53,436 bases of DNA. It comes from a virus. The stretch lies in IMG/VR virus record IMGVR_UViG_3300030503_000465; one strand, given 5' to 3'. Positions 18,473 to 28,198 of the stretch are shown in pieces. Position numbers and translations under genes: made by a program. Position 1 is the first letter of the stretch; every line of letters begins with the position of its first letter. The notes beneath the pieces were generated by a model. It worked only from the letters and a program-made list of their open reading frames with translations. It searched no databases and was not told where the DNA came from.

Positions 18473-19191
18473 TACGCAACCTCCTCGCAAGCCATATCTA
18501 AGGCTTTTTTAACTTCTTCATTATCGAAAGTCCACCCAGCGCCGTTTGCGGTAGTTTCAACTTCTTCCATAGTTTTGCCATTACGTAGTGCTTTTACAGC
18601 ACTGGTAAAAACCTTGCTTCCAATAACTACGGATGCGAGTTTTATTACAGTATGTGGCACATCTTCCGTAATAGGCTCATTTTGGATTTCATCAGAAGTA
18701 TAAGGCATACCAGCTAATTCATCCGAAAAACATAAACGAAATGCTTGTGATATAGCCACTTTTTTAGTCATAAATGACGCTTTCTCCCAAAACTTAGTAA
18801 CTTTTCCCTCACGGGTTCTTTGCACACATTCATCATATAAGGCTTCCCAAACAAACGGATGTTCCTGGTCTTTGCGATAAATAGTAACGGTTGCCTTTAG
18901 GTCGTTTGAAGCAACGCTTCCTGATGTTACGGCATTCCATCCGTTTAACTGGCCGGTACGCTCTGCCCGTTTGATGTAAACCTCATAACCTGTAATAATG
19001 CTCATCTGATCGCCGTACTTTGAAACATGGATTTCACGCTTAAACGGGTTTAAACCGAACGCTTTGGCAATTGACAGGTAGGCAGTTTTTTCAGCATCGT
19101 TTAATTTAGCTGTTAAGCCCAATGTATCTAAGTAGCTGATTAACTCTTTGTCGCCGGGGGCTTGATTTGTTTTTTGGATTTCTGTACTCAT
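18472..19191 (-). CDS. bet: Red-beta/Bet family single-strand annealing protein.
   Basis: FGLNPFKREIHV, IYRKDQEHP, YDEC and AISQAFRLCF line up with lambda Bet (YGLNPWTKEIY, IYRKDRNHP, MDEC, MIQCARLAF). Confidence 0.8.
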   Translation of the reverse strand: MSTEIQKTNQAPGDKELISYLDTLGLTAKLNDAEKTAYLSIAKAFGLNPFKREIHVSKYGDQMSIITGYEVYIKRAERTGQLNGWNAVTSGSVASNDLKATVTIYRKDQEHPFVWEALYDECVQRTREGKVTKFWEKASFMTKKVAISQAFRLCFSDELAGMPYTSDEIQNEPITEDVPHTVIKLASVVIGSKVFTSAVKALRNGKTMEEVETTANGAGWTFDNEEVKKALDMACEEVA

Positions 19192-19268
19192 GATATTTAT
19201 TTTTTTTGTTTTTATGTAGGCTTAATTGCCTCGGTTGTTAAATTTTTACCCTTTCTTTTGAATTTTAT

Positions 19269-19448
19269 TTACCTTACAAACTTCCCGAATGTTGACCAGT
19301 TCTCGATATGCCTGACAACAGGGTTGAATTTAGGAGTCTCGACTAACTTTTCACCGAATTTCGGCACGTTAAGTTTACGTGGTACAAATACGCCGTGCCC
19401 ATCGGGTATTACGGTTGTTTGGGATTTGATTTGGCGGGGTGGTTTCAT
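19269..19448 (-). CDS. Small basic hypothetical protein, 59 aa.
   Basis: ATGA overlap with the YopX stop. Confidence 0.4.
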   Translation of the reverse strand: MKPPRQIKSQTTVIPDGHGVFVPRKLNVPKFGEKLVETPKFNPVVRHIENWSTFGKFVR

Positions 19449-19870
19449 AGCAATTCAGGGTTTTGGTAGATGTTGCCGATAACTTCAGCAAAAGCATATC
19501 CATAAGTATTTAATTTGTAAACTCCTGTTTCTGATTTAAAACAAGCCCAATCCCTATCCCACTCGACAACATATTTTATTTTTACAGAAGTTAACAGTAT
19601 ATCCCCCTCATAAATCTCAACTCCGTTTTTATCCCTTAAGCCAGTGAATTGCAATTTGTCAGAGTAAGAAAAGTCATTATACATGTCTCCGCAATTGCAC
19701 TCAATAGTGTTGGTTTCACCTATTAGTTGACAATTGCACTCCTCAAGTTCCTCCCAAATATCATCTATAGATTTTACCAGTAGTTTTTCGAAATCATACG
19801 GTTTGCTCAAAACAACAGCGCCGAGATCGTTTCTAAATAAGAACTTGAATTTTATCTCTCTATTTTTCAT
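19445..19870 (-). CDS. YopX family protein.
   Basis: FTGLRDKNGVEIYEGDIL and the C-terminal VIGNIYQNPELL. Confidence 0.85.
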   Translation of the reverse strand: MKNREIKFKFLFRNDLGAVVLSKPYDFEKLLVKSIDDIWEELEECNCQLIGETNTIECNCGDMYNDFSYSDKLQFTGLRDKNGVEIYEGDILLTSVKIKYVVEWDRDWACFKSETGVYKLNTYGYAFAEVIGNIYQNPELL

Positions 19871-19948
19871 ATCTTTTCTTACCTATAAAACCCATGCATT
19901 TGATTTTCGCCATTGGTGTTTTCGTACACCTCAAACCTATCCCCAACC

Positions 19949-20179
19949 TTAAGCATGATTAAACCTCCCCACTTTATTTGCCCTTATATCGGCAGCGTAT
20001 TCCAGCATTTCATTATAAAGCATATTATCATGTAATTCCGATAACAGGTCAGGTGCAATAGCATCGCCTGTATGCACATCTGTCATCTTAAGGATAACTG
20101 CCTCGCCGTGCTGAATCTCAAAGTCTACTATAACTTCGGTATCAGTCTCGTTAATTTCGATAGTAGTGTAAAGTTTCAT
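19949..20179 (-). CDS. Hypothetical protein, 76 aa; first gene of the leftward operon.
   Basis: ORF 20 nt downstream of a perfect -7 box. Confidence 0.55.
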   Translation of the reverse strand: MKLYTTIEINETDTEVIVDFEIQHGEAVILKMTDVHTGDAIAPDLLSELHDNMLYNEMLEYAADIRANKVGRFNHA

Positions 20180-20199
20180 CTTTTTTGTTTTTGGTTAGG

Positions 20200-20235
20200 C
20201 AAATATAATGATATGTTTTGGAATTGCAAGAACTA
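20200..20235 (-). promoter_or_regulatory. Leftward promoter: TAGTTCTTG - N19 - TATATTTG on the minus strand.
   Basis: The -33-like element is at 20235..20227 and the -7 box at 20207..20200. The architecture matches 20283 and 32334. Confidence 0.55.
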
Positions 20236-20282
20236 TTTTAATAATTATTTAGTAAATAGTATAAATCTACTTAATTTTAATT

Positions 20283-20328
20283 TAGTTCTTGTTTTATAAT
20301 TATATAGTTTGTATGTTTGCGGTGTCGA
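20283..20328 (+). promoter_or_regulatory. Rightward promoter: TAGTTCTTG - N20 - TATGTTTG - N2 - GTGTCGA.
   Basis: Read directly. It lies back-to-back with the leftward promoter. Confidence 0.55.
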
Positions 20329-20343
20329 TGATGACAATTAAAA

Positions 20344-21159
20344 ATGTTCAACAAAATTAAAAAGCAAAAAGCACAACTAAAAAACTACAAAGTTGCTACT
20401 GGAAAAGTATTAATAATGCGTTCCTGTGATGAAAATTTAAAATCATATGGCGGTTTCCAATGGCCTGATAGTGGCATTTGCATTGCGCCAGATTTTAAAG
20501 AAACTAAATTATGCGGTAATGGTTTACACGGGTTCTTAAAAGGTGAGGGAGATGGCTCATTGGGCAATTTCGATATATCGGCTAAATGGCTTATATGCGA
20601 GGTTGATGAAAGTCAAATAATAGACCTCGTAGGAAAGGTTAAATTTAAAAAATGTGAAGTTATATTTTGCGGTTGTTTAAAAGATGCCGCCAATATAATA
20701 GCTACCATTTACCCTAATTTAAAAACAATAGGCGGTACAGCAACTGCGGGTTACAGCGGTACAGCAACTGCGGGTGACAGCGGTACAGCAACTGCGGGTT
20801 ACAGCGGTACAGCAACTGCGGGTTACAGCGGTACAGCAACTGCGGGTGACAGAGGTACAGCAACTGCGGGTGACAGCGGTACAGCAACTGCGGGTGACAG
20901 CGGTACAGCAACTGCGGGTGACAGAGGTACAGCAACTGCGGGTGACAGCGGTACAGCAACTGCGGGTTACAGCGGTACAGCAACTGCGGGTGACAGAGGT
21001 ACAGCAACTGCGGGTTACAGCGGTGTTTTGATTATTGAATACTACGATAATATTGCATGTGTTTACAAAAAGAAAGTTGCCTTAATCGGTGAAAATGGCA
21101 TTAAAGCAAATATAAAATATAAACTTAATTCAAAAAATGAATTTGAAGAAATTGTATAG
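20344..21159 (+). CDS. Repeat protein: a Cys-containing N-terminal domain followed by 12 GTATAG(Y/D)(S/R) octapeptides that resemble ice-nucleation protein repeats.
   Basis: The translation shows 12 consecutive octapeptides. The 16-mer AGYSGTATAGDSGTAT resembles the INP repeat AGYGSTxTAGxxSxxT. Confidence 0.7.
   Translation: MFNKIKKQKAQLKNYKVATGKVLIMRSCDENLKSYGGFQWPDSGICIAPDFKETKLCGNGLHGFLKGEGDGSLGNFDISAKWLICEVDESQIIDLVGKVKFKKCEVIFCGCLKDAANIIATIYPNLKTIGGTATAGYSGTATAGDSGTATAGYSGTATAGYSGTATAGDRGTATAGDSGTATAGDSGTATAGDRGTATAGDSGTATAGYSGTATAGDRGTATAGYSGVLIIEYYDNIACVYKKKVALIGENGIKANIKYKLNSKNEFEEIV
20734..21021 (+). repeat. 12 x 24-bp tandem repeat GGTACAGCAACTGCGGGT(T/G)ACAG(C/A).
   Basis: Only two polymorphic positions per unit. 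Confidence 0.95.
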
Positions 21160-21229
21160 TTTCTGAACATTCTATATTAATCTGTTATTGGCGGCTTAGG
21201 TCGCCTTTGGCAGTAAAGACATATTAATT

Positions 21230-21427
21230 ATGGCAAAACTAAAATTACGCAAAAATACAAAGTACCCGTTTAAGCATTTGGATAAAATCGGGGAAAGTTT
21301 TACACTTACCAATTGCATTAAAAAAAATGTAACCGCTGCTTATGCAATGTACAAGGCTAAAAATAATATAGTCTGTACCGTAACCGAATTTGAAAACGGA
21401 AAGATAATCGTACTTAGAACCGCCTAA
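21230..21427 (+). CDS. Hypothetical protein, 65 aa.
   Basis: ORF. Confidence 0.55.
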   Translation: MAKLKLRKNTKYPFKHLDKIGESFTLTNCIKKNVTAAYAMYKAKNNIVCTVTEFENGKIIVLRTA

Positions 21428-21552
21428 TGAACCGCAAGCGAAATAACATCATGCGTAAGCGCCAGGAACAGCGTGTAAAAGCTGCCGGATGGTGGGCTTT
21501 CATAGCGTGGATTTCTGAACCGGATAAATTCTTAAAAATTAATAGAAAATGA
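21427..21552 (+). CDS. Small basic hypothetical protein, 41 aa.
   Basis: TAATG and ATGA overlaps with both neighbours. Confidence 0.35.
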   Translation: MNRKRNNIMRKRQEQRVKAAGWWAFIAWISEPDKFLKINRK

Positions 21553-21770
21553 AAAACCGGAATACATTTAATGATGAATGTACGCGATGCGGCGGTGGCG
21601 ATATTCGTGTACTTACCGATACTAAAGAAGATGGATATGCCCATGATGGTGATGAGGCCGAATGTTTGGAATGTGGGCTAAAAGGAATGGTTTGCGTCGA
21701 CGGTGATGAAAATGGTGAAGGCGAATGTACCTCGCATATTTCATGGGATGATTACGAAGAAGAAGATTAA
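21549..21770 (+). CDS. Highly acidic zinc-ribbon-like protein, 73 aa.
   Basis: CTRC...CLEC pairs, a very high Asp/Glu content, and a C-terminal DDYEEED. Confidence 0.55.
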   Translation: MKNRNTFNDECTRCGGGDIRVLTDTKEDGYAHDGDEAECLECGLKGMVCVDGDENGEGECTSHISWDDYEEED

Positions 21771-21774
21771 TATT

Positions 21775-21861
21775 ATGAAAAGATTATTTTACTGGACACT
21801 CGTTTTTATTATCGCCATGGTATTTTGGCTTGGCGTTTACTTTATAATAACGAAAATATGA
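21775..21861 (+). CDS. Tiny membrane peptide, 28 aa.
   Basis: MKRLFYWTLVFIIAMVFWLGVYFIITKI. Overlaps the next ATG. Confidence 0.3.
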   Translation: MKRLFYWTLVFIIAMVFWLGVYFIITKI

Positions 21862-21983
21862 ACTGGCTGAAAAAACTATTTACCAAAAAGCCTCATAAAT
21901 GTCTTTACACCTATAAGGGAAAGGATATAAATAACCAATTTTGCATTAAATGCGGGAAAATTAAAAATGAAAAAACTTACTAA
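21858..21983 (+). CDS. Small hypothetical protein, 41 aa.
   Basis: Contains C...CIKC. Overlapping start and stop. Confidence 0.3.
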   Translation: MNWLKKLFTKKPHKCLYTYKGKDINNQFCIKCGKIKNEKTY

Positions 21984-22056
21984 ACCACAATGGGTGCTGG
22001 TCGTGGTGATCATTGCCCTTCTTTTCAAAGCTTATTTACAATCAAAAACCATATAA
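21967..22056 (+). CDS. Tiny membrane peptide, 29 aa.
   Basis: MKKLTKPQWVLVVVIIALLFKAYLQSKTI. Confidence 0.3.
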   Translation: MKKLTKPQWVLVVVIIALLFKAYLQSKTI

Positions 22057-22058
22057 TC

Positions 22059-22268
22059 ATGAAAAATTACACATTAGAGGAAACTCTTAAATTTAAAGCC
22101 AATCGGAACAATAAAAGCCGATTTGATAAACTTATCAGGAAGGGACATTACAGGATAAGGGGAGATGGTCGTTATGAGCATTCTATCACGAGAAAAGTAT
22201 TCAACTTTTTTTCAGCAAACAGAACCATGGTAATCGCACCATTATCTTTTCAACCAAAAAACCAATAA
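22059..22268 (+). CDS. Hypothetical basic protein, 69 aa.
   Basis: ATG at 22059. The ORF-track start would overlap the preceding peptide. Confidence 0.5.
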   Translation: MKNYTLEETLKFKANRNNKSRFDKLIRKGHYRIRGDGRYEHSITRKVFNFFSANRTMVIAPLSFQPKNQ

Positions 22269-22270
22269 CC

Positions 22271-22675
22271 ATGTACAATTTTAACAACGAAAAATTCCAC
22301 TGGACAAATTACTTAATTATCCCGTTAATCATTGCAGCTATGTTTTCACCTTTGGCTGGTGGGGCGCAACAACCAAAGCCAACAAAAGATACCGTCGCGC
22401 TATATGATGATTCTGTGGCTCATGTAGCCCCTACACTTATAGGCCACCAAAGCTTCTTACGTCCAAAGAAGGATACTACCCAATGCTATTTTCAAATAAT
22501 AAAAGGCGTTGTAAACGGTCAGCTAATGGGCGAATGGTTTGACGGCTGGGTAATAAAACCGAAAGGAGATCAATTTATTTTTTCCACAGATGATGCCGAT
22601 GAAAAGTACTATGAGCCTATTTATTTGTATCACAACAAAAAAGTAGTAACAGCTAAAGTTATTAACCACTATTAA
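22271..22675 (+). CDS. Hypothetical secreted or membrane protein.
   Basis: N-terminal hydrophobic segment ending in AGGAQQ. Confidence 0.55.
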   Translation: MYNFNNEKFHWTNYLIIPLIIAAMFSPLAGGAQQPKPTKDTVALYDDSVAHVAPTLIGHQSFLRPKKDTTQCYFQIIKGVVNGQLMGEWFDGWVIKPKGDQFIFSTDDADEKYYEPIYLYHNKKVVTAKVINHY

Positions 22676-22930
22676 ATGAAACACCTCACCATAACCGCCA
22701 TCCTCGTAGCAGCTACGTGTACGGCATTTTGTCAAACCCTCCCCAAAACCGTCAAACTCACCCTAACCGATAAACAGGTGATGCGTATCGATTCAGCCAT
22801 TAACTACATGGCAAACAGTACAGACAGCAAAGCCGCGACTAAATGGCTTATGGGTGCTTTTGAGCCCTTTTACGTGCAAGTTAGGGCGCAGTTGGATACG
22901 GTGAAGAAAATACCTGTAAAAACGAAATAA
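22676..22930 (+). CDS. Hypothetical secreted protein, 84 aa.
   Basis: Signal peptide MKHLTITAILVAATCTAFCQT. Confidence 0.55.
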   Translation: MKHLTITAILVAATCTAFCQTLPKTVKLTLTDKQVMRIDSAINYMANSTDSKAATKWLMGAFEPFYVQVRAQLDTVKKIPVKTK

Positions 22931-22934
22931 TAAT

Positions 22935-23192
22935 ATGGCAGAAATAATAATCGAGGGTCACAAGATTGACACTAAAGACATTTGGGATGTTCAATACAAT
23001 TCAGATTCTTGGCGCGTTGATGTTACAATAAAAATTACAGGCAAGCCTAATATTATTATAGGCAGAAAAGTTCCGTGGGAATGCTCGCGCATGACAATGG
23101 AAGGTATTGTTTCCCCTTATAAAAAGCTTTATGAATCGATTAAGCAAAAATGGGAAGCAGATAAATCGGATTTACCTGTATTTAAACTTTAA
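22935..23192 (+). CDS. Hypothetical protein, 85 aa.
   Basis: ORF. Confidence 0.55.
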   Translation: MAEIIIEGHKIDTKDIWDVQYNSDSWRVDVTIKITGKPNIIIGRKVPWECSRMTMEGIVSPYKKLYESIKQKWEADKSDLPVFKL

Positions 23193-27152: not shown

Positions 27153-27198
27153 AAACATTTGTGAAAGTTAAAAATGTTTGGTAGTATTGTGGTGTCGA
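27153..27198 (+). promoter_or_regulatory. Promoter: ..TTG - N20 - TAGTATTG - N2 - GTGTCGA.
   Basis: Same spacing and the same GTGTCRA element as the promoters at 20283 and 32334. One mismatch in the -7 box. Confidence 0.45.
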
Positions 27199-27226: not shown

Positions 27227-28198
27227 ATGAAAACTCAAATTTACAACTCCTATATGGAGTTCTTGTCACGTGGTGACAAAAAAGAAAACGGTGTATCAAA
27301 ATCATTCGCCGAATTAAACCCAAATTTCGAAACCGATAACAGCACAAACGAAGCGTGTTGGAATTGCCGTGGTTGCCGTGGTTGCAGTGATTGCAGTGGT
27401 TGCCATGGTTGCCATGGTTGCCGTGGTTGCCGTGGTTGCCATGGTTGCCATGGTTGCCGTGGTTGCCGTGGTTGCCGTGGTTGCAGTGATTGCCATGGTT
27501 GCCATGGTTGCCATGGTTGCCGTGATTGCCGTGATTGCCGTGGTTGCAGTGATTGCAGTGGTTGCCATGGTTGCCATGGTTGCCATGGTTGCAGTGATTG
27601 CAGTGGTTGCAGTGATTGCCGTGGTTGCCGTGGTTGCAGTGATTGCAGTGGTTGCCATGGTTGCCATGATTGCCGTGGTTGCAGTGATTGCAGTGATTGC
27701 CATGATTGCCATGGTTGCAGTGATTGCAGTGATTGCCATGGTTGCCATGGTTGCAGTGATTGCAGTGATTGCCATGGTTGCCGTGGTTGCAGTGATTTAT
27801 ATTTTAAAATGAATATCGAAAACCAAGTCGATAAAAAAACAGAATCGGAAAAACCAAGCCACCCAACTTTTGCAGGTATGAAAATACCAATACTGTCCAA
27901 TATACACCAACAAATATTAGAGGCTATCACGCCACCTGAACAACGCTTGAATATGAACGCTTGGCATACTTGCGGAACTACACATTGCCGCGCGGGATGG
28001 GCGGTTCATTTAGCCGGTAAAGAGGGGTATGAGTTGGAGAAAATAGGTGGAACTTGTTTTGCGGCTATGATGATTTTTAAATACTCATCACCAATAAAAG
28101 TTAGCCCTGTTCGGTTTTTTGAAGATAACGAGACAGCTTATCGTGATATTAAGAAATGCGCAACCGCCGAAAAGAGGCGCAATAAAAAGACTGCATGA
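27227..28198 (+). CDS. Cys-triplet repeat protein: a 43-aa N-terminus, then 49 x C-(R/H/S/W)-(G/D/N), then a ~175-aa C-terminal domain with a CGTTHCRAGW motif.
   Basis: The translation shows a cysteine at every third residue for 147 aa. The gene is monocistronic, with its own promoter and terminator. Confidence 0.75.
   Translation: MKTQIYNSYMEFLSRGDKKENGVSKSFAELNPNFETDNSTNEACWNCRGCRGCSDCSGCHGCHGCRGCRGCHGCHGCRGCRGCRGCSDCHGCHGCHGCRDCRDCRGCSDCSGCHGCHGCHGCSDCSGCSDCRGCRGCSDCSGCHGCHDCRGCSDCSDCHDCHGCSDCSDCHGCHGCSDCSDCHGCRGCSDLYFKMNIENQVDKKTESEKPSHPTFAGMKIPILSNIHQQILEAITPPEQRLNMNAWHTCGTTHCRAGWAVHLAGKEGYELEKIGGTCFAAMMIFKYSSPIKVSPVRFFEDNETAYRDIKKCATAEKRRNKKTA
27356..27796 (+). repeat. 49 x 9-bp tandem repeat TGC-(CGT/CAT/AGT)-(GGT/GAT).
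   Basis: Read directly. It uses one codon per amino acid, except that the first unit is TGT-TGG-AAT. Confidence 0.95.

Follow-up and report, generated by a model that had tools for sequence, protein, structure and literature searches.

The open reading frame at 20344..21159 (+) of the viral sequence IMGVR_UViG_3300030503_000465, whose 53,436 nucleotides are here called the window, very probably encodes a member of the Bbp36/VR2 family (DUF7666, PHROG 18079) with the three-module architecture of that family. Tentatively, we read the product as a soluble early accessory protein with a recombination-variable rod that takes part in phage-host conflict. The octapeptide repeats and the C-terminal domain resemble those of the bacterial ice-nucleation proteins (INPs), yet ice nucleation is an unlikely function, and a phage-host conflict protein is the more likely description of the family. 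The features discussed below are collected in Table 1.

Table 1. Features in and upstream of the gene, in window coordinates
Feature	Position	Strand	Remarks
Divergent intergenic region	20180..20343	.	164 bp; leftward RecT/helicase module on the opposite side
Sigma-70-like site, TCGACA-18-TATAAT	20328->20299	-	leftward; consensus match only
TATGTTTG, match to TAnnTTTG	20312-20319	+	consensus match only
ATGTTTG...GGTGTCGA pair	20313/20321		upstream of the gene; consensus match only
N-terminal domain	20344..20733	+	aa 1-130; Lys-rich tail (aa 1-20) and beta-rich DUF7666 core
Tandem array	20734..21021	+	12 x 24 bp, in frame; recombination-prone part; INP-like octapeptides
C-terminal non-repeat domain	21022..21156	+	aa 227-271, 45 aa, GVLIIEYYDNIACVYKKKVALIGENGIKANIKYKLNSKNEFEEIV; homologue of the 41-residue INP cap

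In the ORF list of the window the gene starts with ATG and encodes 271 amino acids. The TRF program reports a 24-bp period with 12.2 copies and 95% matches at 20732..21024, and the 12 units with two variable nucleotide positions described in the initial annotation were recovered in the same register. Every unit consists of an 18-bp constant part, GGTACAGCAACTGCGGGT, which encodes GTATAG and is identical in 12/12 units, followed by a 6-bp cassette. The cassettes are TACAGC (YS, five units), GACAGC (DS, four units) and GACAGA (DR, three units), i.e. they differ by T/G and C/A. With up to 3 mismatches allowed, the 18-mer has 12 copies in the window, all of them within the array, whereas none is expected from 100 shuffles.

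The order of the Y and D cassettes along the array is irregular (Y D Y Y D D D D D Y D Y). To look in the sequence for a sign of 16-residue coils or of ordered ladders, the cassettes were examined for a period-2 order and the arrays for a preference for even unit counts. In 96 family arrays the lag-2 signal was absent, and even unit counts were not preferred (38 even vs 58 odd). The random-looking order and the lack of an even-count bias thus give no support to a 'code' on the edge of the rod or to a whole-coil constraint, and the initial reading of the repeats as 16-mers finds no backing in the cassette order.

Structure prediction, which had been proposed at the outset, assigns to each octapeptide a strand of four residues, TATA (AlphaFold2 model of the full protein, pLDDT 87.7, strands assigned by DSSP). 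A Foldseek search of this model against the PDB returned nothing below E 0.7; the weak matches are beta-helix proteins (the CAP C-terminal domain, LbH acyltransferases and MinC). These matches and the homology described below point to a solenoid, as opposed to a meander, as the probable geometry of the repeats. The maximal Kyte-Doolittle hydropathy is 1.38 and there is no TM-like segment in the 271 residues, so the protein is probably soluble. Among the other database searches, the PDB sequence search with the protein gave a chance match alone (E 5.7), PADLOC gave no match and NCBIfam gave noise only. A Pfam match to DUF4774 (E 8e-7), which we take to be an arthropod family, is confined to the repeat region and is probably compositional; a match to CxC1 (E 0.015) was set aside.

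Membership in the Bbp36/VR2 family was overlooked in the initial annotation, as was the RIIB likeness of the N-terminal domain. The whole ORF matches phrog_18079 with E 1.2e-68, and in a tblastn search the N-terminal domain has 41.5% identity (E 4e-15) to Bbp36 of the Bordetella phage BPP-1. The Pfam score for DUF7666 is 22.7 bits and stays below the curated cut-off of 27. More than 3,225 homologues share the three-part layout, and the family comprises about 1,400 clusters at 50% identity. In the 1,382 representatives found by phmmer the DUF7666 domain is nearly always N-terminal. The tail pattern of the family, G..I..WD....Y...G..G...G[IV]....Y, is kept in the window protein, Y259 being invariant and G249 nearly so. 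The family is carried by many bacterial phyla, among them Planctomycetota, Acidobacteriota, Bacteroidota, Actinomycetota, Chloroflexota, CPR and Proteobacteria, and this broad spread suggests a general role that is not tied to cold habitats. The Bbp36 gene and its homologues in the phages Mica and D14O share an early-region location, close to cI/cro and replication genes. A conserved neighbouring gene was not found, the best cluster being present at 14 of 80 loci, which suggests that the protein acts as a stand-alone module.

The family is thus already catalogued, since VR2/Bbp36 was described in the early 2000s and is also listed as DUF7666; it is uncharacterised. We draw on PMC2884959 and on GenBank records for the facts about VR2, short for 'variable region 2', the label given to the hypervariable repeat array in the GenBank record of BPP-1. 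VR2 has 9-20 copies depending on the isolate, and the gene is non-essential and has no link to tropism (PMC2884959). Our literature search returned no mention of DUF7666 and no paper connecting Bbp36 with INPs or RIIB. We note that Caulobacter CCNA_02815, which is named 'ice nucleation protein' and is regulated on phiCbK infection, is a candidate for membership.

The view that the locus is prone to expansion and contraction agrees with two sets of genomes. The near-identical contig L002 (99.98% identity over 10.6 kb, mismatch-free in the flanks of the gene) has 9 units in place of 12, and in four near-identical Rauchvirus BPP1 genomes Bbp36 has 7, 14, 20 and about 21 units with reshuffled cassettes. 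The unit organisation is the same in BPP-1, BMP-1, BIP-1, vB_BbrP_003 and 70 complete IMG/VR genes. In 79% of these 70 genes all units of the array (4-28 units) have exactly the same 18-bp constant part (100% identity), and each array has 2-7 cassette types. Between loci the constant part shows 81% identity and GTATAG is kept, i.e. the differences are synonymous. In other words, the constant part is homogenised and the copy number varies throughout the family.

An improbable alternative is that the array, or the number of its units, stems from faulty assembly and that the real array is heterogeneous or of another length, be it longer or shorter, in which case neither the figure of 12 units nor the 12-vs-9 difference would have a biological meaning. 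The difference falls between two exact 71-bp repeats, both sequences are assemblies, that of L002 being a k=141 short-read assembly, and many IMG/VR and MAG contigs end within such arrays. INP arrays are also known to be mis-assembled from short reads (PMC10727499). This particular difference could therefore be a collapsed assembly loop rather than biology. On the other hand, inspection of the cassette order shows that none of the eight 5-cassette windows in the 12-unit array recurs, so a 141-mer graph should be able to resolve it. Moreover, this type of array is found family-wide and in complete genomes of isolated phages, and BPP-1, BMP-1 and BIP-1 have been reported, from experiments, to differ in copy number (PMC2884959).

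The resemblance to INP repeats is, judging by the alignments, a matter of homology. An INP consensus aligned by BLASTP with the window protein at 43% identity (35 bits), and an InaZ-type C-terminal fragment gave gapless alignments with family members that span the last repeats and continue into the non-repeat tail, with E 5e-15 for family member P0003 and E 2e-8 for the window protein. The comparison of non-repeat parts alone (hhalign, family tail A4 against INP cap A5) gave 97.9% and E 3.4e-13 over 42 columns, by which the tail is shown at the sequence level to be homologous to the INP cap. The cap has a functional role in INPs, and residues of the PbINP cap have been mutated (PMC10727499); the inferred positions F1204, D1208 and Y1230 of PbINP align with I231, D235 and Y259. 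In addition, the sister protein P0138, which shares its N-terminal domain with the window protein, passes the Pfam Ice_nucleation model (39.5 bits, cut-off 27). Nevertheless, the Pfam search proposed in the initial annotation was negative: PF00818 gave nothing at E <= 10 with the whole protein, the repeat region or an idealised YS/DS array, whereas the positive control scored 301 bits. Thus the likeness first noticed in the repeats is borne out there and extends to the C-terminal cap, but it does not include a PF00818 match, the array size, the periodicity or the N-terminal anchor of INPs.

It is against this background that a function in ice nucleation or ice binding has to be weighed, in which Thr-x-Thr arrays on the solenoid would order water, as they do in INPs or in the antifreeze proteins of insects, and aid the phage or lysogen in the cold. 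Besides the homology of repeats and cap, this proposal can draw on the T-A-T in every octapeptide, on the Mica homologue, which the authors of phage Mica annotated as an ice nucleation protein, and on the nearest TerL relatives of the window, Flavobacterium phages (39-43% identity) that include phages of F. psychrophilum. We nevertheless hold it to be very improbable. The array would form about 6 coils, whereas INPs have 50-100 16-residue repeats and act as very large multimers, PbINP for example with 53 WO-coils and 12 R-coils (PMC10727499, PMC12978214). Along with the Pfam match, the protein lacks the SLT half seen in INP coils; it has no membrane anchor, signal peptide or hydrophobic segment and should therefore stay in the cytoplasm. 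Family members are also known from phages and prophages of Bordetella, P. aeruginosa, Actinomycetota, CPR and other hosts, with no link to cold, and their arrays are unstable in unit number and often short, with as few as 4 units.

The N-terminal 130 residues contain 7 Cys and the SYGGFQWPDSG...CGNGLHGF stretch, as expected from the Cys-containing domain of about 125 aa that had been noted at first sight. Twelve residues are invariant in the family (F38, W40, C57, G58, G60, L61, H62, G67, G69, K98, K100 and G110). AlphaFold2 modelled this domain alone with pLDDT 92.1 and pTM 0.85, and a Foldseek search of the model against BFVD returned more than 8 RIIB models with TM 0.55-0.58, rmsd 2.9-4.4 A and E 1.6e-4 to 5e-3. 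In a profile comparison with the C-terminal domain of RIIB by hhalign, aa 18-94 were aligned (E 2.7e-4, probability 42%). Two of 10 RIIB tails matched DUF7666 weakly, and reciprocal sub-threshold HMM matches between the two domain families were enriched (p 1.6e-10 and 5e-25). Single matches in a plain hmmsearch between the two families were not significant (E 0.2-10), and hhalign of the N-domain profile with the single sequence of T4 RIIB covered 14 columns at a probability of 1.6%. Taken together, the modelled fold is well supported as RIIB-like. The likeness concerns one domain, as there is no full-length collinearity, and the HTH that is matched in T4 RIIB at aa 7-50 is not matched in the window protein.

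To the right of the divergent intergenic region no ORF precedes the gene, which the initial annotation placed first after a rightward promoter, and it belongs to the early region of the window. No Shine-Dalgarno sequence precedes its ATG. The upstream sequence includes a match to TAnnTTTG, presumably the -7 promoter box of Bacteroidota. The ATGTTTG...GGTGTCGA pair is found again at 27174/27191, upstream of the Cys-array gene at 27227, and the proposal that both genes have the same class of promoter is plausible in so far as the pair is common to both. Taken singly, ATGTTTG and GGTGTCGA are no commoner in the window than expected by chance, and what stands out is their joint occurrence upstream of the two genes. 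Megablast of 19000-23000 against phage genomes gave no match. The host of the window phage is probably a member of the Bacteroidota.

We also considered the array as a variable region of a diversity-generating retroelement (DGR) and rejected this, given that no template copy of the unit exists elsewhere in the window, that the 10 large ORFs scanned there include no reverse transcriptase and that the cassettes differ by T/G and C/A. The same two negative searches bear on the idea of a structural or receptor-binding virion component whose variable rod shifts the host range. Hypervariable repeats are typical of receptor-binding proteins and BPP-1 is the paradigm of tropism switching, but the gene lies far from the tail and structural genes of the window, and we would give this idea hardly any weight. 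Least credible of all is that the repeats act as DNA, i.e. as replication-origin iterons or a protein-binding array with an incidental ORF: twelve perfect 18-bp direct repeats at 24-bp spacing do adjoin a replication/recombination module, and lambda-type origins sit inside genes, but the peptide GTATAG is kept across phyla while the DNA changes synonymously (81% between loci vs 100% within arrays), the unit is always 8 codons long and in frame with conserved N- and C-terminal domains, unit numbers range from 4 to 28, and bbp36 is dispensable for phage growth (PMC2884959).

The reading that we prefer is that of an accessory protein built of three modules. The first would be a head with the fold of the RIIB C-terminal domain and a CxxGLH...K.K motif. 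The second, a homologue of the INP repeat domain, would be a short rod in the form of a beta-solenoid, in which two GTATAGxx octapeptides make up one 16-residue coil; Thr would point outward and Ala inward on both flat faces, and the variable dipeptide would occupy coil positions 3-4 and 11-12, i.e. the lateral positions. In INPs, the lateral positions of the coils serve the tyrosine ladder and charge-driven multimerisation (PMC10727499). The third module would be an INP-type cap that closes the solenoid. Since the units share 18 identical bp, slippage or unequal recombination can add, delete and reshuffle whole 24-bp units in frame, and such exchange would alter the length of the rod and the mix of its edge residues while the constant part is kept homogenised. 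The geometry of 16 residues per coil and the mechanism of recombination are inferred, and the biological role even more so. The most likely role would be in conflict between phage and host or between phage and prophage, where the rod, by binding or by self-assembly, may serve counter-defence or the evasion of sensing. Taken by itself, this conflict function is a doubtful part of the reading. RIIB, the protector of T-even phages from prophage-induced early lysis, acts against the abortive-infection system RexAB and is in turn a target of sensing by gasdermin/CARD systems (bioRxiv 10.1101/2023.05.28.542683). With regard to mechanism, the analogy with RIIB conveys little.

A wider and still more speculative view, which we consider unlikely as a whole, is that INPs and the phage family descend from a common solenoid-plus-cap ancestor, that the phage family is a possible source of INPs and that the fusion of rod and RIIB-type domain is an effector or decoy in such conflicts. 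The phage family is far more widely spread and its repeats are more diverse, so it could be the source of the Gammaproteobacterial INPs; these would have arisen from a phage-family ancestor by expansion of the array and gain of a membrane anchor. Likewise, an INP-type rod with a reshufflable edge, joined to a RIIB-type domain, might act as a hypervariable decoy or effector where abortive infection is at stake. If true, this would offer a handle on the function of rII and on the origin of INPs. Apart from this, the soluble protein with its predicted six coils would be a 'mini-INP' scaffold that could be expressed and crystallised, with a bearing on the origin of INPs. The head domain links the family to RIIB, a classic phage protein. 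Finally, homogenised constant parts combined with shuffled cassettes make the family a clean natural system for the study of recombination-driven hypervariation of a phage protein.

Compared with known systems, the window protein shares with INPs (InaZ, PbINP; PF00818) the octapeptide register AG-x-x-(G/S)T-x-T, with T-x-T in every unit, and the C-terminal cap, in which three functionally tested residues are conserved or conservatively replaced. It differs in size, with 12 octapeptides as against 50-100 16-residue coils with a 48-residue super-periodicity. The two halves of its putative coil are identical and lack the SLT face, there is no distinct R-coil subdomain, and the N-terminus is a cytoplasmic RIIB-like domain rather than a membrane anchor. 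The phage-borne family is also pan-bacterial, whereas INPs are limited to Pseudomonas, Pantoea and Xanthomonas. With RIIB the protein has in common the predicted fold of the C-terminal domain, the invariant C-x-x-G-L-H and the downstream K-x-[KR] motif, and RIIB, like the members of the Bbp36 family, is an early, non-essential phage protein. RIIB, however, has no solenoid but an HTH at its N-terminus followed by a middle domain, and the identity is just 10-19% in one domain.

Because whole units can be exchanged in frame, the locus would behave like the simple-sequence contingency loci of bacteria, in which perfect tandem repeats are likewise gained or lost by slippage or recombination. In contingency loci, gain and loss of repeats create heritable, reversible heterogeneity of the population. 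The difference is that the 24-bp unit always stays in frame, i.e. the length and the surface of the protein are altered and not the on/off state of its expression. Gp54 of the mycobacteriophage Tweety is likewise encoded in the early region, is non-essential and contains tandem repeats, in frame, that differ in number among related phages, and its authors themselves compared gp54 and its relatives with VR2 (PMC2884959). Its repeat is a tetrapeptide, AA-x-x, of unrelated sequence that is thought to be unstructured, and it has neither the DUF7666 head nor the INP cap.

Bbp36 has the same three-part architecture, the GTATAGxx octapeptide, the C-terminal tail and the early-region position. Its 24-bp unit, too, combines an invariant stretch with a short cassette of about three kinds, and its unit number differs between near-identical genomes, as it may for the window gene, given the two assemblies with 12 and 9 units. 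Bbp36 uses other codons for the constant part and the cassettes YR, ES, NY and EK instead of YS, DS and DR, its host belongs to the Betaproteobacteria and not, as is probable for the window phage, to the Bacteroidota, and BPP-1 carries a DGR, of which the window shows neither a template copy nor, in the 10 large ORFs scanned, a reverse transcriptase.

The repeat gene is an ATG-started ORF encoding 271 aa. Tandem Repeats Finder detected a single array in it (period 24, 12.2 copies, 95% matches), in which 12 units stand in register. The first 18 bp of all 12 units are identical (GGTACAGCAACTGCGGGT, translated as GTATAG), and the units end in the cassettes TACAGC (YS, five times), GACAGC (DS, four times) and GACAGA (DR, three times). 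When the window was searched for the 18-mer with up to 3 mismatches, 12 occurrences were found, without exception inside the array, against a chance expectation of 0. The initial annotation is thereby confirmed as to where the array lies, how many units it has, its two variable nucleotide positions and the encoded peptide, GTATAG(Y/D)(S/R). The Cys-containing N-terminal domain is likewise present, with 7 Cys and the quoted motifs in the first 130 aa; the array is followed by a 45-aa tail without repeats.

Coordinates of the features discussed in the text
Feature	Position	Strand	Description
Octapeptide-repeat gene	20344..21159	+	ORF
Tandem array	20732..21024		Tandem Repeats Finder
Units in register	20734..21021		12 units
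TAnnTTTG box	20312-20319		upstream of the octapeptide-repeat gene
Sigma-70-type site	20299..20328	-	TCGACA-18-TATAAT
Cys-array gene	27227..28198	+	hypervariable-looking repeat gene
Cys array	27364..27794		within the Cys-array gene
Glycosyltransferase gene	41532..42524	+	weak family matches

As had been proposed, this is the first ORF running rightward from a divergent intergenic region of 164 bp; the genes facing it, which run leftward, are a small ORF, a YopX-like gene, RecT and a Dda-like helicase. The TAnnTTTG box upstream of the gene has the pattern of the Bacteroidota -7 promoter box. A promoter class shared with the Cys-array gene had also been claimed: an ATGTTTG/GGTGTCGA pair does occur upstream of both genes, but neither motif taken singly is more frequent in the window than expected by chance, so that the claim is plausible but unproven. 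The leftward sigma-70-type site is near-consensus (11/12 matches), is aimed at the RecT/helicase operon and shares bases with the GGTGTCGA motif upstream of the rightward gene, so that the divergent early promoters may have one regulatory site in common.

The window protein belongs to a large family. It matches PHROG 18079 with an E value of 1e-68, and Pfam DUF7666 at aa 23-107 with 22.7 bits, slightly under the cut-off of 27. A search of 5.8 billion proteins gave more than 3,225 homologues, and those listed are all built alike, from an N-domain (about 115-155 aa), GTATAGxx repeats (4-23 units, median 16) and a tail of about 45 aa. With the N-domain only, phmmer found 1,382 clusters at E <= 1e-3 among 1.84 billion representatives, and in almost all of the best 150 of these matches the domain is N-terminal. 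In cellular genomes the family is found in Planctomycetota, Acidobacteriota, Bacteroidota, Actinomycetota, Chloroflexota, Myxococcota, CPR phyla and Proteobacteria; tblastn against phage genomes gave four homologues. Bbp36 of the Bordetella phages BPP-1, BMP-1 and BIP-1 has an N-domain identity of 41.5% to the window protein (E 4e-15), the homologue of Burkholderia phage Mica is annotated as "ice nucleation protein" on the basis of a BLASTP match to the SwissProt ice-nucleation protein (INP) Q47879, and that of Pseudomonas phage D14O is wrongly named FliK. The BPP-1 record labels the array within bbp36 "variable region 2; VR2". VR2 is a 24-bp element, made of a 19-bp repeat and one of three 5-bp spacers, in 9-20 copies varying by isolate (PMC2884959, citing Liu et al. 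2002 and 2004); it has no link to tropism and bbp36 is non-essential (PMC2884959). The window gene has exactly the VR2 organisation and is a new member of the Bbp36/VR2 family. In the window and in the four annotated phages the gene's location is the early region, with cI/cro and replication genes nearby, and a comparison of 80 loci revealed no conserved neighbouring gene. CCNA_02815 of Caulobacter is a candidate for family membership; the operon CCNA_02815-02816, annotated as "ice nucleation protein" and hypothetical protein, is among the genes with phiCbK TgrL ChIP-seq peaks at promoter regions (PMC10688885).

The number of units varies between closely related sequences. L002, a contig from a metagenome, matches the window at 99.98% identity across 10.6 kb and the array flanks within the gene are without mismatch, yet its array has 9 units instead of 12, a change equivalent to a deletion between two exact 71-bp repeats. 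This difference may reflect genuine recombination or the collapse of a loop during short-read assembly. Many contigs from metagenomes break off within arrays (L018, L027, L029, L033, L045, L057, L066, L076, L078 and many further metagenomic or MAG loci), which calls for caution with unit counts from short-read assemblies; the repeats disrupt such assemblies, and family members are often incomplete in databases. That the unit count of the window is an assembly artefact is unlikely, a judgement that covers the number and not the array itself. Complete phage genomes give independent evidence of variation: Bbp36 has 14 units in BPP-1, about 21 in BMP-1, 20 in BIP-1 and 7 in vB_BbrP_003, with (near-)identical flanks, an identical 18-bp constant part and reshuffled cassettes (YR, ES, NY and EK). 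The NY cassette (AATTAC) occurs in BIP-1 (L006) and in none of the other three phages, and BMP-1 (L005) has one cassette-less unit in which GTATAG abuts GTATAG; the variation thus exceeds plain gain and loss of units.

Homogenisation of the arrays is a family-wide tendency. In 79% of 70 complete IMG/VR genes (arrays of 4 to 28 units, 2-7 cassette types each) the constant 18 bp are 100% identical throughout the array, whereas the major constant unit has an identity of just 81% across loci. GTATAG is kept all the same, so the differences are at synonymous sites. This contrast argues firmly for strong selection on the peptide GTATAG and for a unit turnover that outpaces the build-up of point mutations, i.e. 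for concerted evolution via slippage or unequal recombination. The suggestion of an expansion- and contraction-prone locus is supported by the 7 to about 21 units of Bbp36 in four near-identical Bordetella phages. The cassette order is seemingly random, with no signal at lag 2; 38 arrays have an even and 58 an odd number of units. No second (template) copy of the unit was found in the window, nor a reverse transcriptase among the 10 large ORFs scanned, which speaks against a DGR mechanism.

The Cys-array gene contains about 48 copies of a 9-bp unit encoding C-(R/H/S)-(G/D) tripeptides (CRGCHGCSD...), with a non-repeat C-terminal domain after them; its sole Pfam match is a weak one to collagen. 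Between its array and that of L002 there is a difference of 36 bp (4 units), besides many substitutions, and the L002 gene calls break the gene into two ORFs.

AlphaFold2 (45 family sequences, mean pLDDT 87.7) gives an N-domain rich in beta structure, one strand of 4 residues (TATA) per octapeptide and a beta-hairpin tail. Foldseek found no significant match for the model in the PDB, the weak ones being beta-helix proteins. We know of no solved INP structure, and a PDB sequence search returned none; the 16-residue coil is taken by homology from published INP models.

The Pfam model PF00818 (Ice_nucleation), named earlier as a check, matches neither the window protein nor the repeat region alone nor an idealised YS/DS array, the positive control (INP consensus) scoring 301 bits. 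The likeness to INP repeats is real, as seen from BLASTP of the INP consensus (43% identity, 35 bits) and from the C-terminal caps. The cap comparison started from the presumed resemblance of the InaZ C-terminus to the family tail. A search with an InaZ C-terminal sequence as query retrieved genuine INP fragments, including P0123 (98% identical to the query) and one from Xanthomonas oryzae. P0123 aligns without gaps from the last repeats into the non-repeat tail, both with family member P0003 (36% identity over 80 aa, E 5e-15) and with the window protein (E 2e-8). A profile-profile comparison of the non-repeat tails only, 29 from the family and 4 INP caps, gave a probability of 97.9% (E 3.4e-13, 42 columns). 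The 41-residue INP cap is essential, and the F1204/D1208/Y1230 triple mutation strongly lowers ice-nucleation activity (PMC10727499). Their spacing suggests that in P0123 these residues are F, D and Y within LIFRCWD...PY, which align in the window protein with I231, D235 and Y259, the last of them invariant across the family. Among the best N-domain matches, octapeptides include GTATAGxx, GTSTSGxx, ATVTGGxx, STLTGGxx and AGYGSTVK/AGSRSTVD, and the same cap terminates most of the complete genes. P0138, with an N-domain as in the window protein, passes PF00818 with 39.5 bits (cut-off 27) in 7 stretches. Cap homology, repeat spectrum and P0138 together argue that the solenoid-plus-cap module of the family is homologous to that of INPs. 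Diverse arrays follow the DUF7666 head (P0138, P0146, P0167, P0142, P0139, P0171, P0179), among them HSSTTGxx arrays and, in a few proteins, leucine-rich-repeat-like tails; some of those other than P0138 weakly match the grass antifreeze beta-roll family (LbR_Ice_bind).

The N-domain resembles the C-terminal domain of RIIB. Foldseek of the full model against BFVD retrieved many RIIB proteins, ranked below DUF7666 proteins, and the end of T4 RIIB (...CSRGLHV...VVKVKVHPRDVV...KMRTCQYEVV) parallels CGNGLHG...KWLICEVDESQII...KVKFKKCEVI of the window protein. In hhalign, 30 N-domains against 10 diverse RIIB C-terminal domains gave E 2.7e-4 (probability 42%, 73 columns), and 2/10 RIIB tails weakly match DUF7666. 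Plain HMM searches between the two sets gave no single significant match; reciprocal sub-threshold matches are strongly enriched (7/24, p 1.6e-10; 26/34, p 5e-25). The model of the N-domain only (pLDDT 92.1, pTM 0.85) matches RIIB models of Acinetobacter, Salmonella, Escherichia RB43, Caulobacter, Aeromonas, Vibrio, Pseudomonas and one N4-like phage (TM 0.55-0.58, normalised to the 130-aa query; rmsd 2.9-4.4 A; E 1.6e-4 to 5e-3). It is likely that the two domains have a common fold and a probable remote homology. The N-domain model also matches one domain of many giant-virus "ankyrin repeat"/DUF4116 proteins in BFVD (Tupanvirus, Megavirus, Moumouvirus and Mimivirus; TM about 0.5-0.59). T-even phages overcome RexAB by means of RIIB, a conserved early protein that is itself sensed by bacterial gasdermin/CARD systems (bioRxiv 10.1101/2023.05.28.542683).

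The window is that of a tailed phage, with a Mu-type portal, tape-measure protein, ClpP-type protease, GH25 lysin and terminase. Its closest TerL relatives are in Flavobacterium phages (39-43% identity), its GC content is 38.8% and no Shine-Dalgarno sequence precedes the two gene starts inspected (20344 and 21230), for which reasons the host is probably a member of Bacteroidota. The glycosyltransferase weakly matches Glyco_trans_1_4 and "GT4-conflict" (family 4 glycosyltransferases in conflict systems) and is possibly a further phage-host conflict gene.

In summary, the gene is a stand-alone gene of the early region, with repeats homogenised and cassettes shuffled family-wide and unit numbers differing among near-identical genomes. 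Its product is a soluble protein of three modules, namely a head of RIIB type followed by an octapeptide rod and a cap, both of INP type; we have high confidence in this identity and architecture. The rod would be a flat solenoid whose faces are lined with Thr and whose lateral edges vary. Units would be added, removed and reordered in frame when the identical 18-bp parts slip or recombine unequally, and populations would become heterogeneous in the length of the rod and the chemistry of its edges. The protein may act in phage-host or phage-prophage conflict, the rod either binding or self-assembling and the head serving as the conserved functional end; this function is proposed tentatively. 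True ice nucleation or ice binding is very improbable, a virion or receptor-binding role slightly more so, and a DNA-level role of the array, e.g. as iterons, the least probable of all.

The VR2 phenomenon and loose "ice nucleation protein" annotations are already known. The literature searched contains no mention of DUF7666 and no link of Bbp36 to INPs or RIIB; nor did we see reported there the cap homology to INPs, bridging members that pass PF00818, the RIIB-type head or a quantified family-wide concerted evolution of the constant part. The window protein was rejected as an INP: INPs have 50-100 coils (PMC12978214), whereas it has about 6, and, unlike INPs, it is without SLT face, R-coil block and membrane anchor; no hydrophobic segment is present either. 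In the register AG-x-x-GTAT, the variable dipeptide would fall at INP coil positions 3-4 and 11-12. In INPs, position 3 forms the tyrosine ladder for dimerisation, and positions 11-12 are charged and drive electrostatic multimerisation (PMC10727499).
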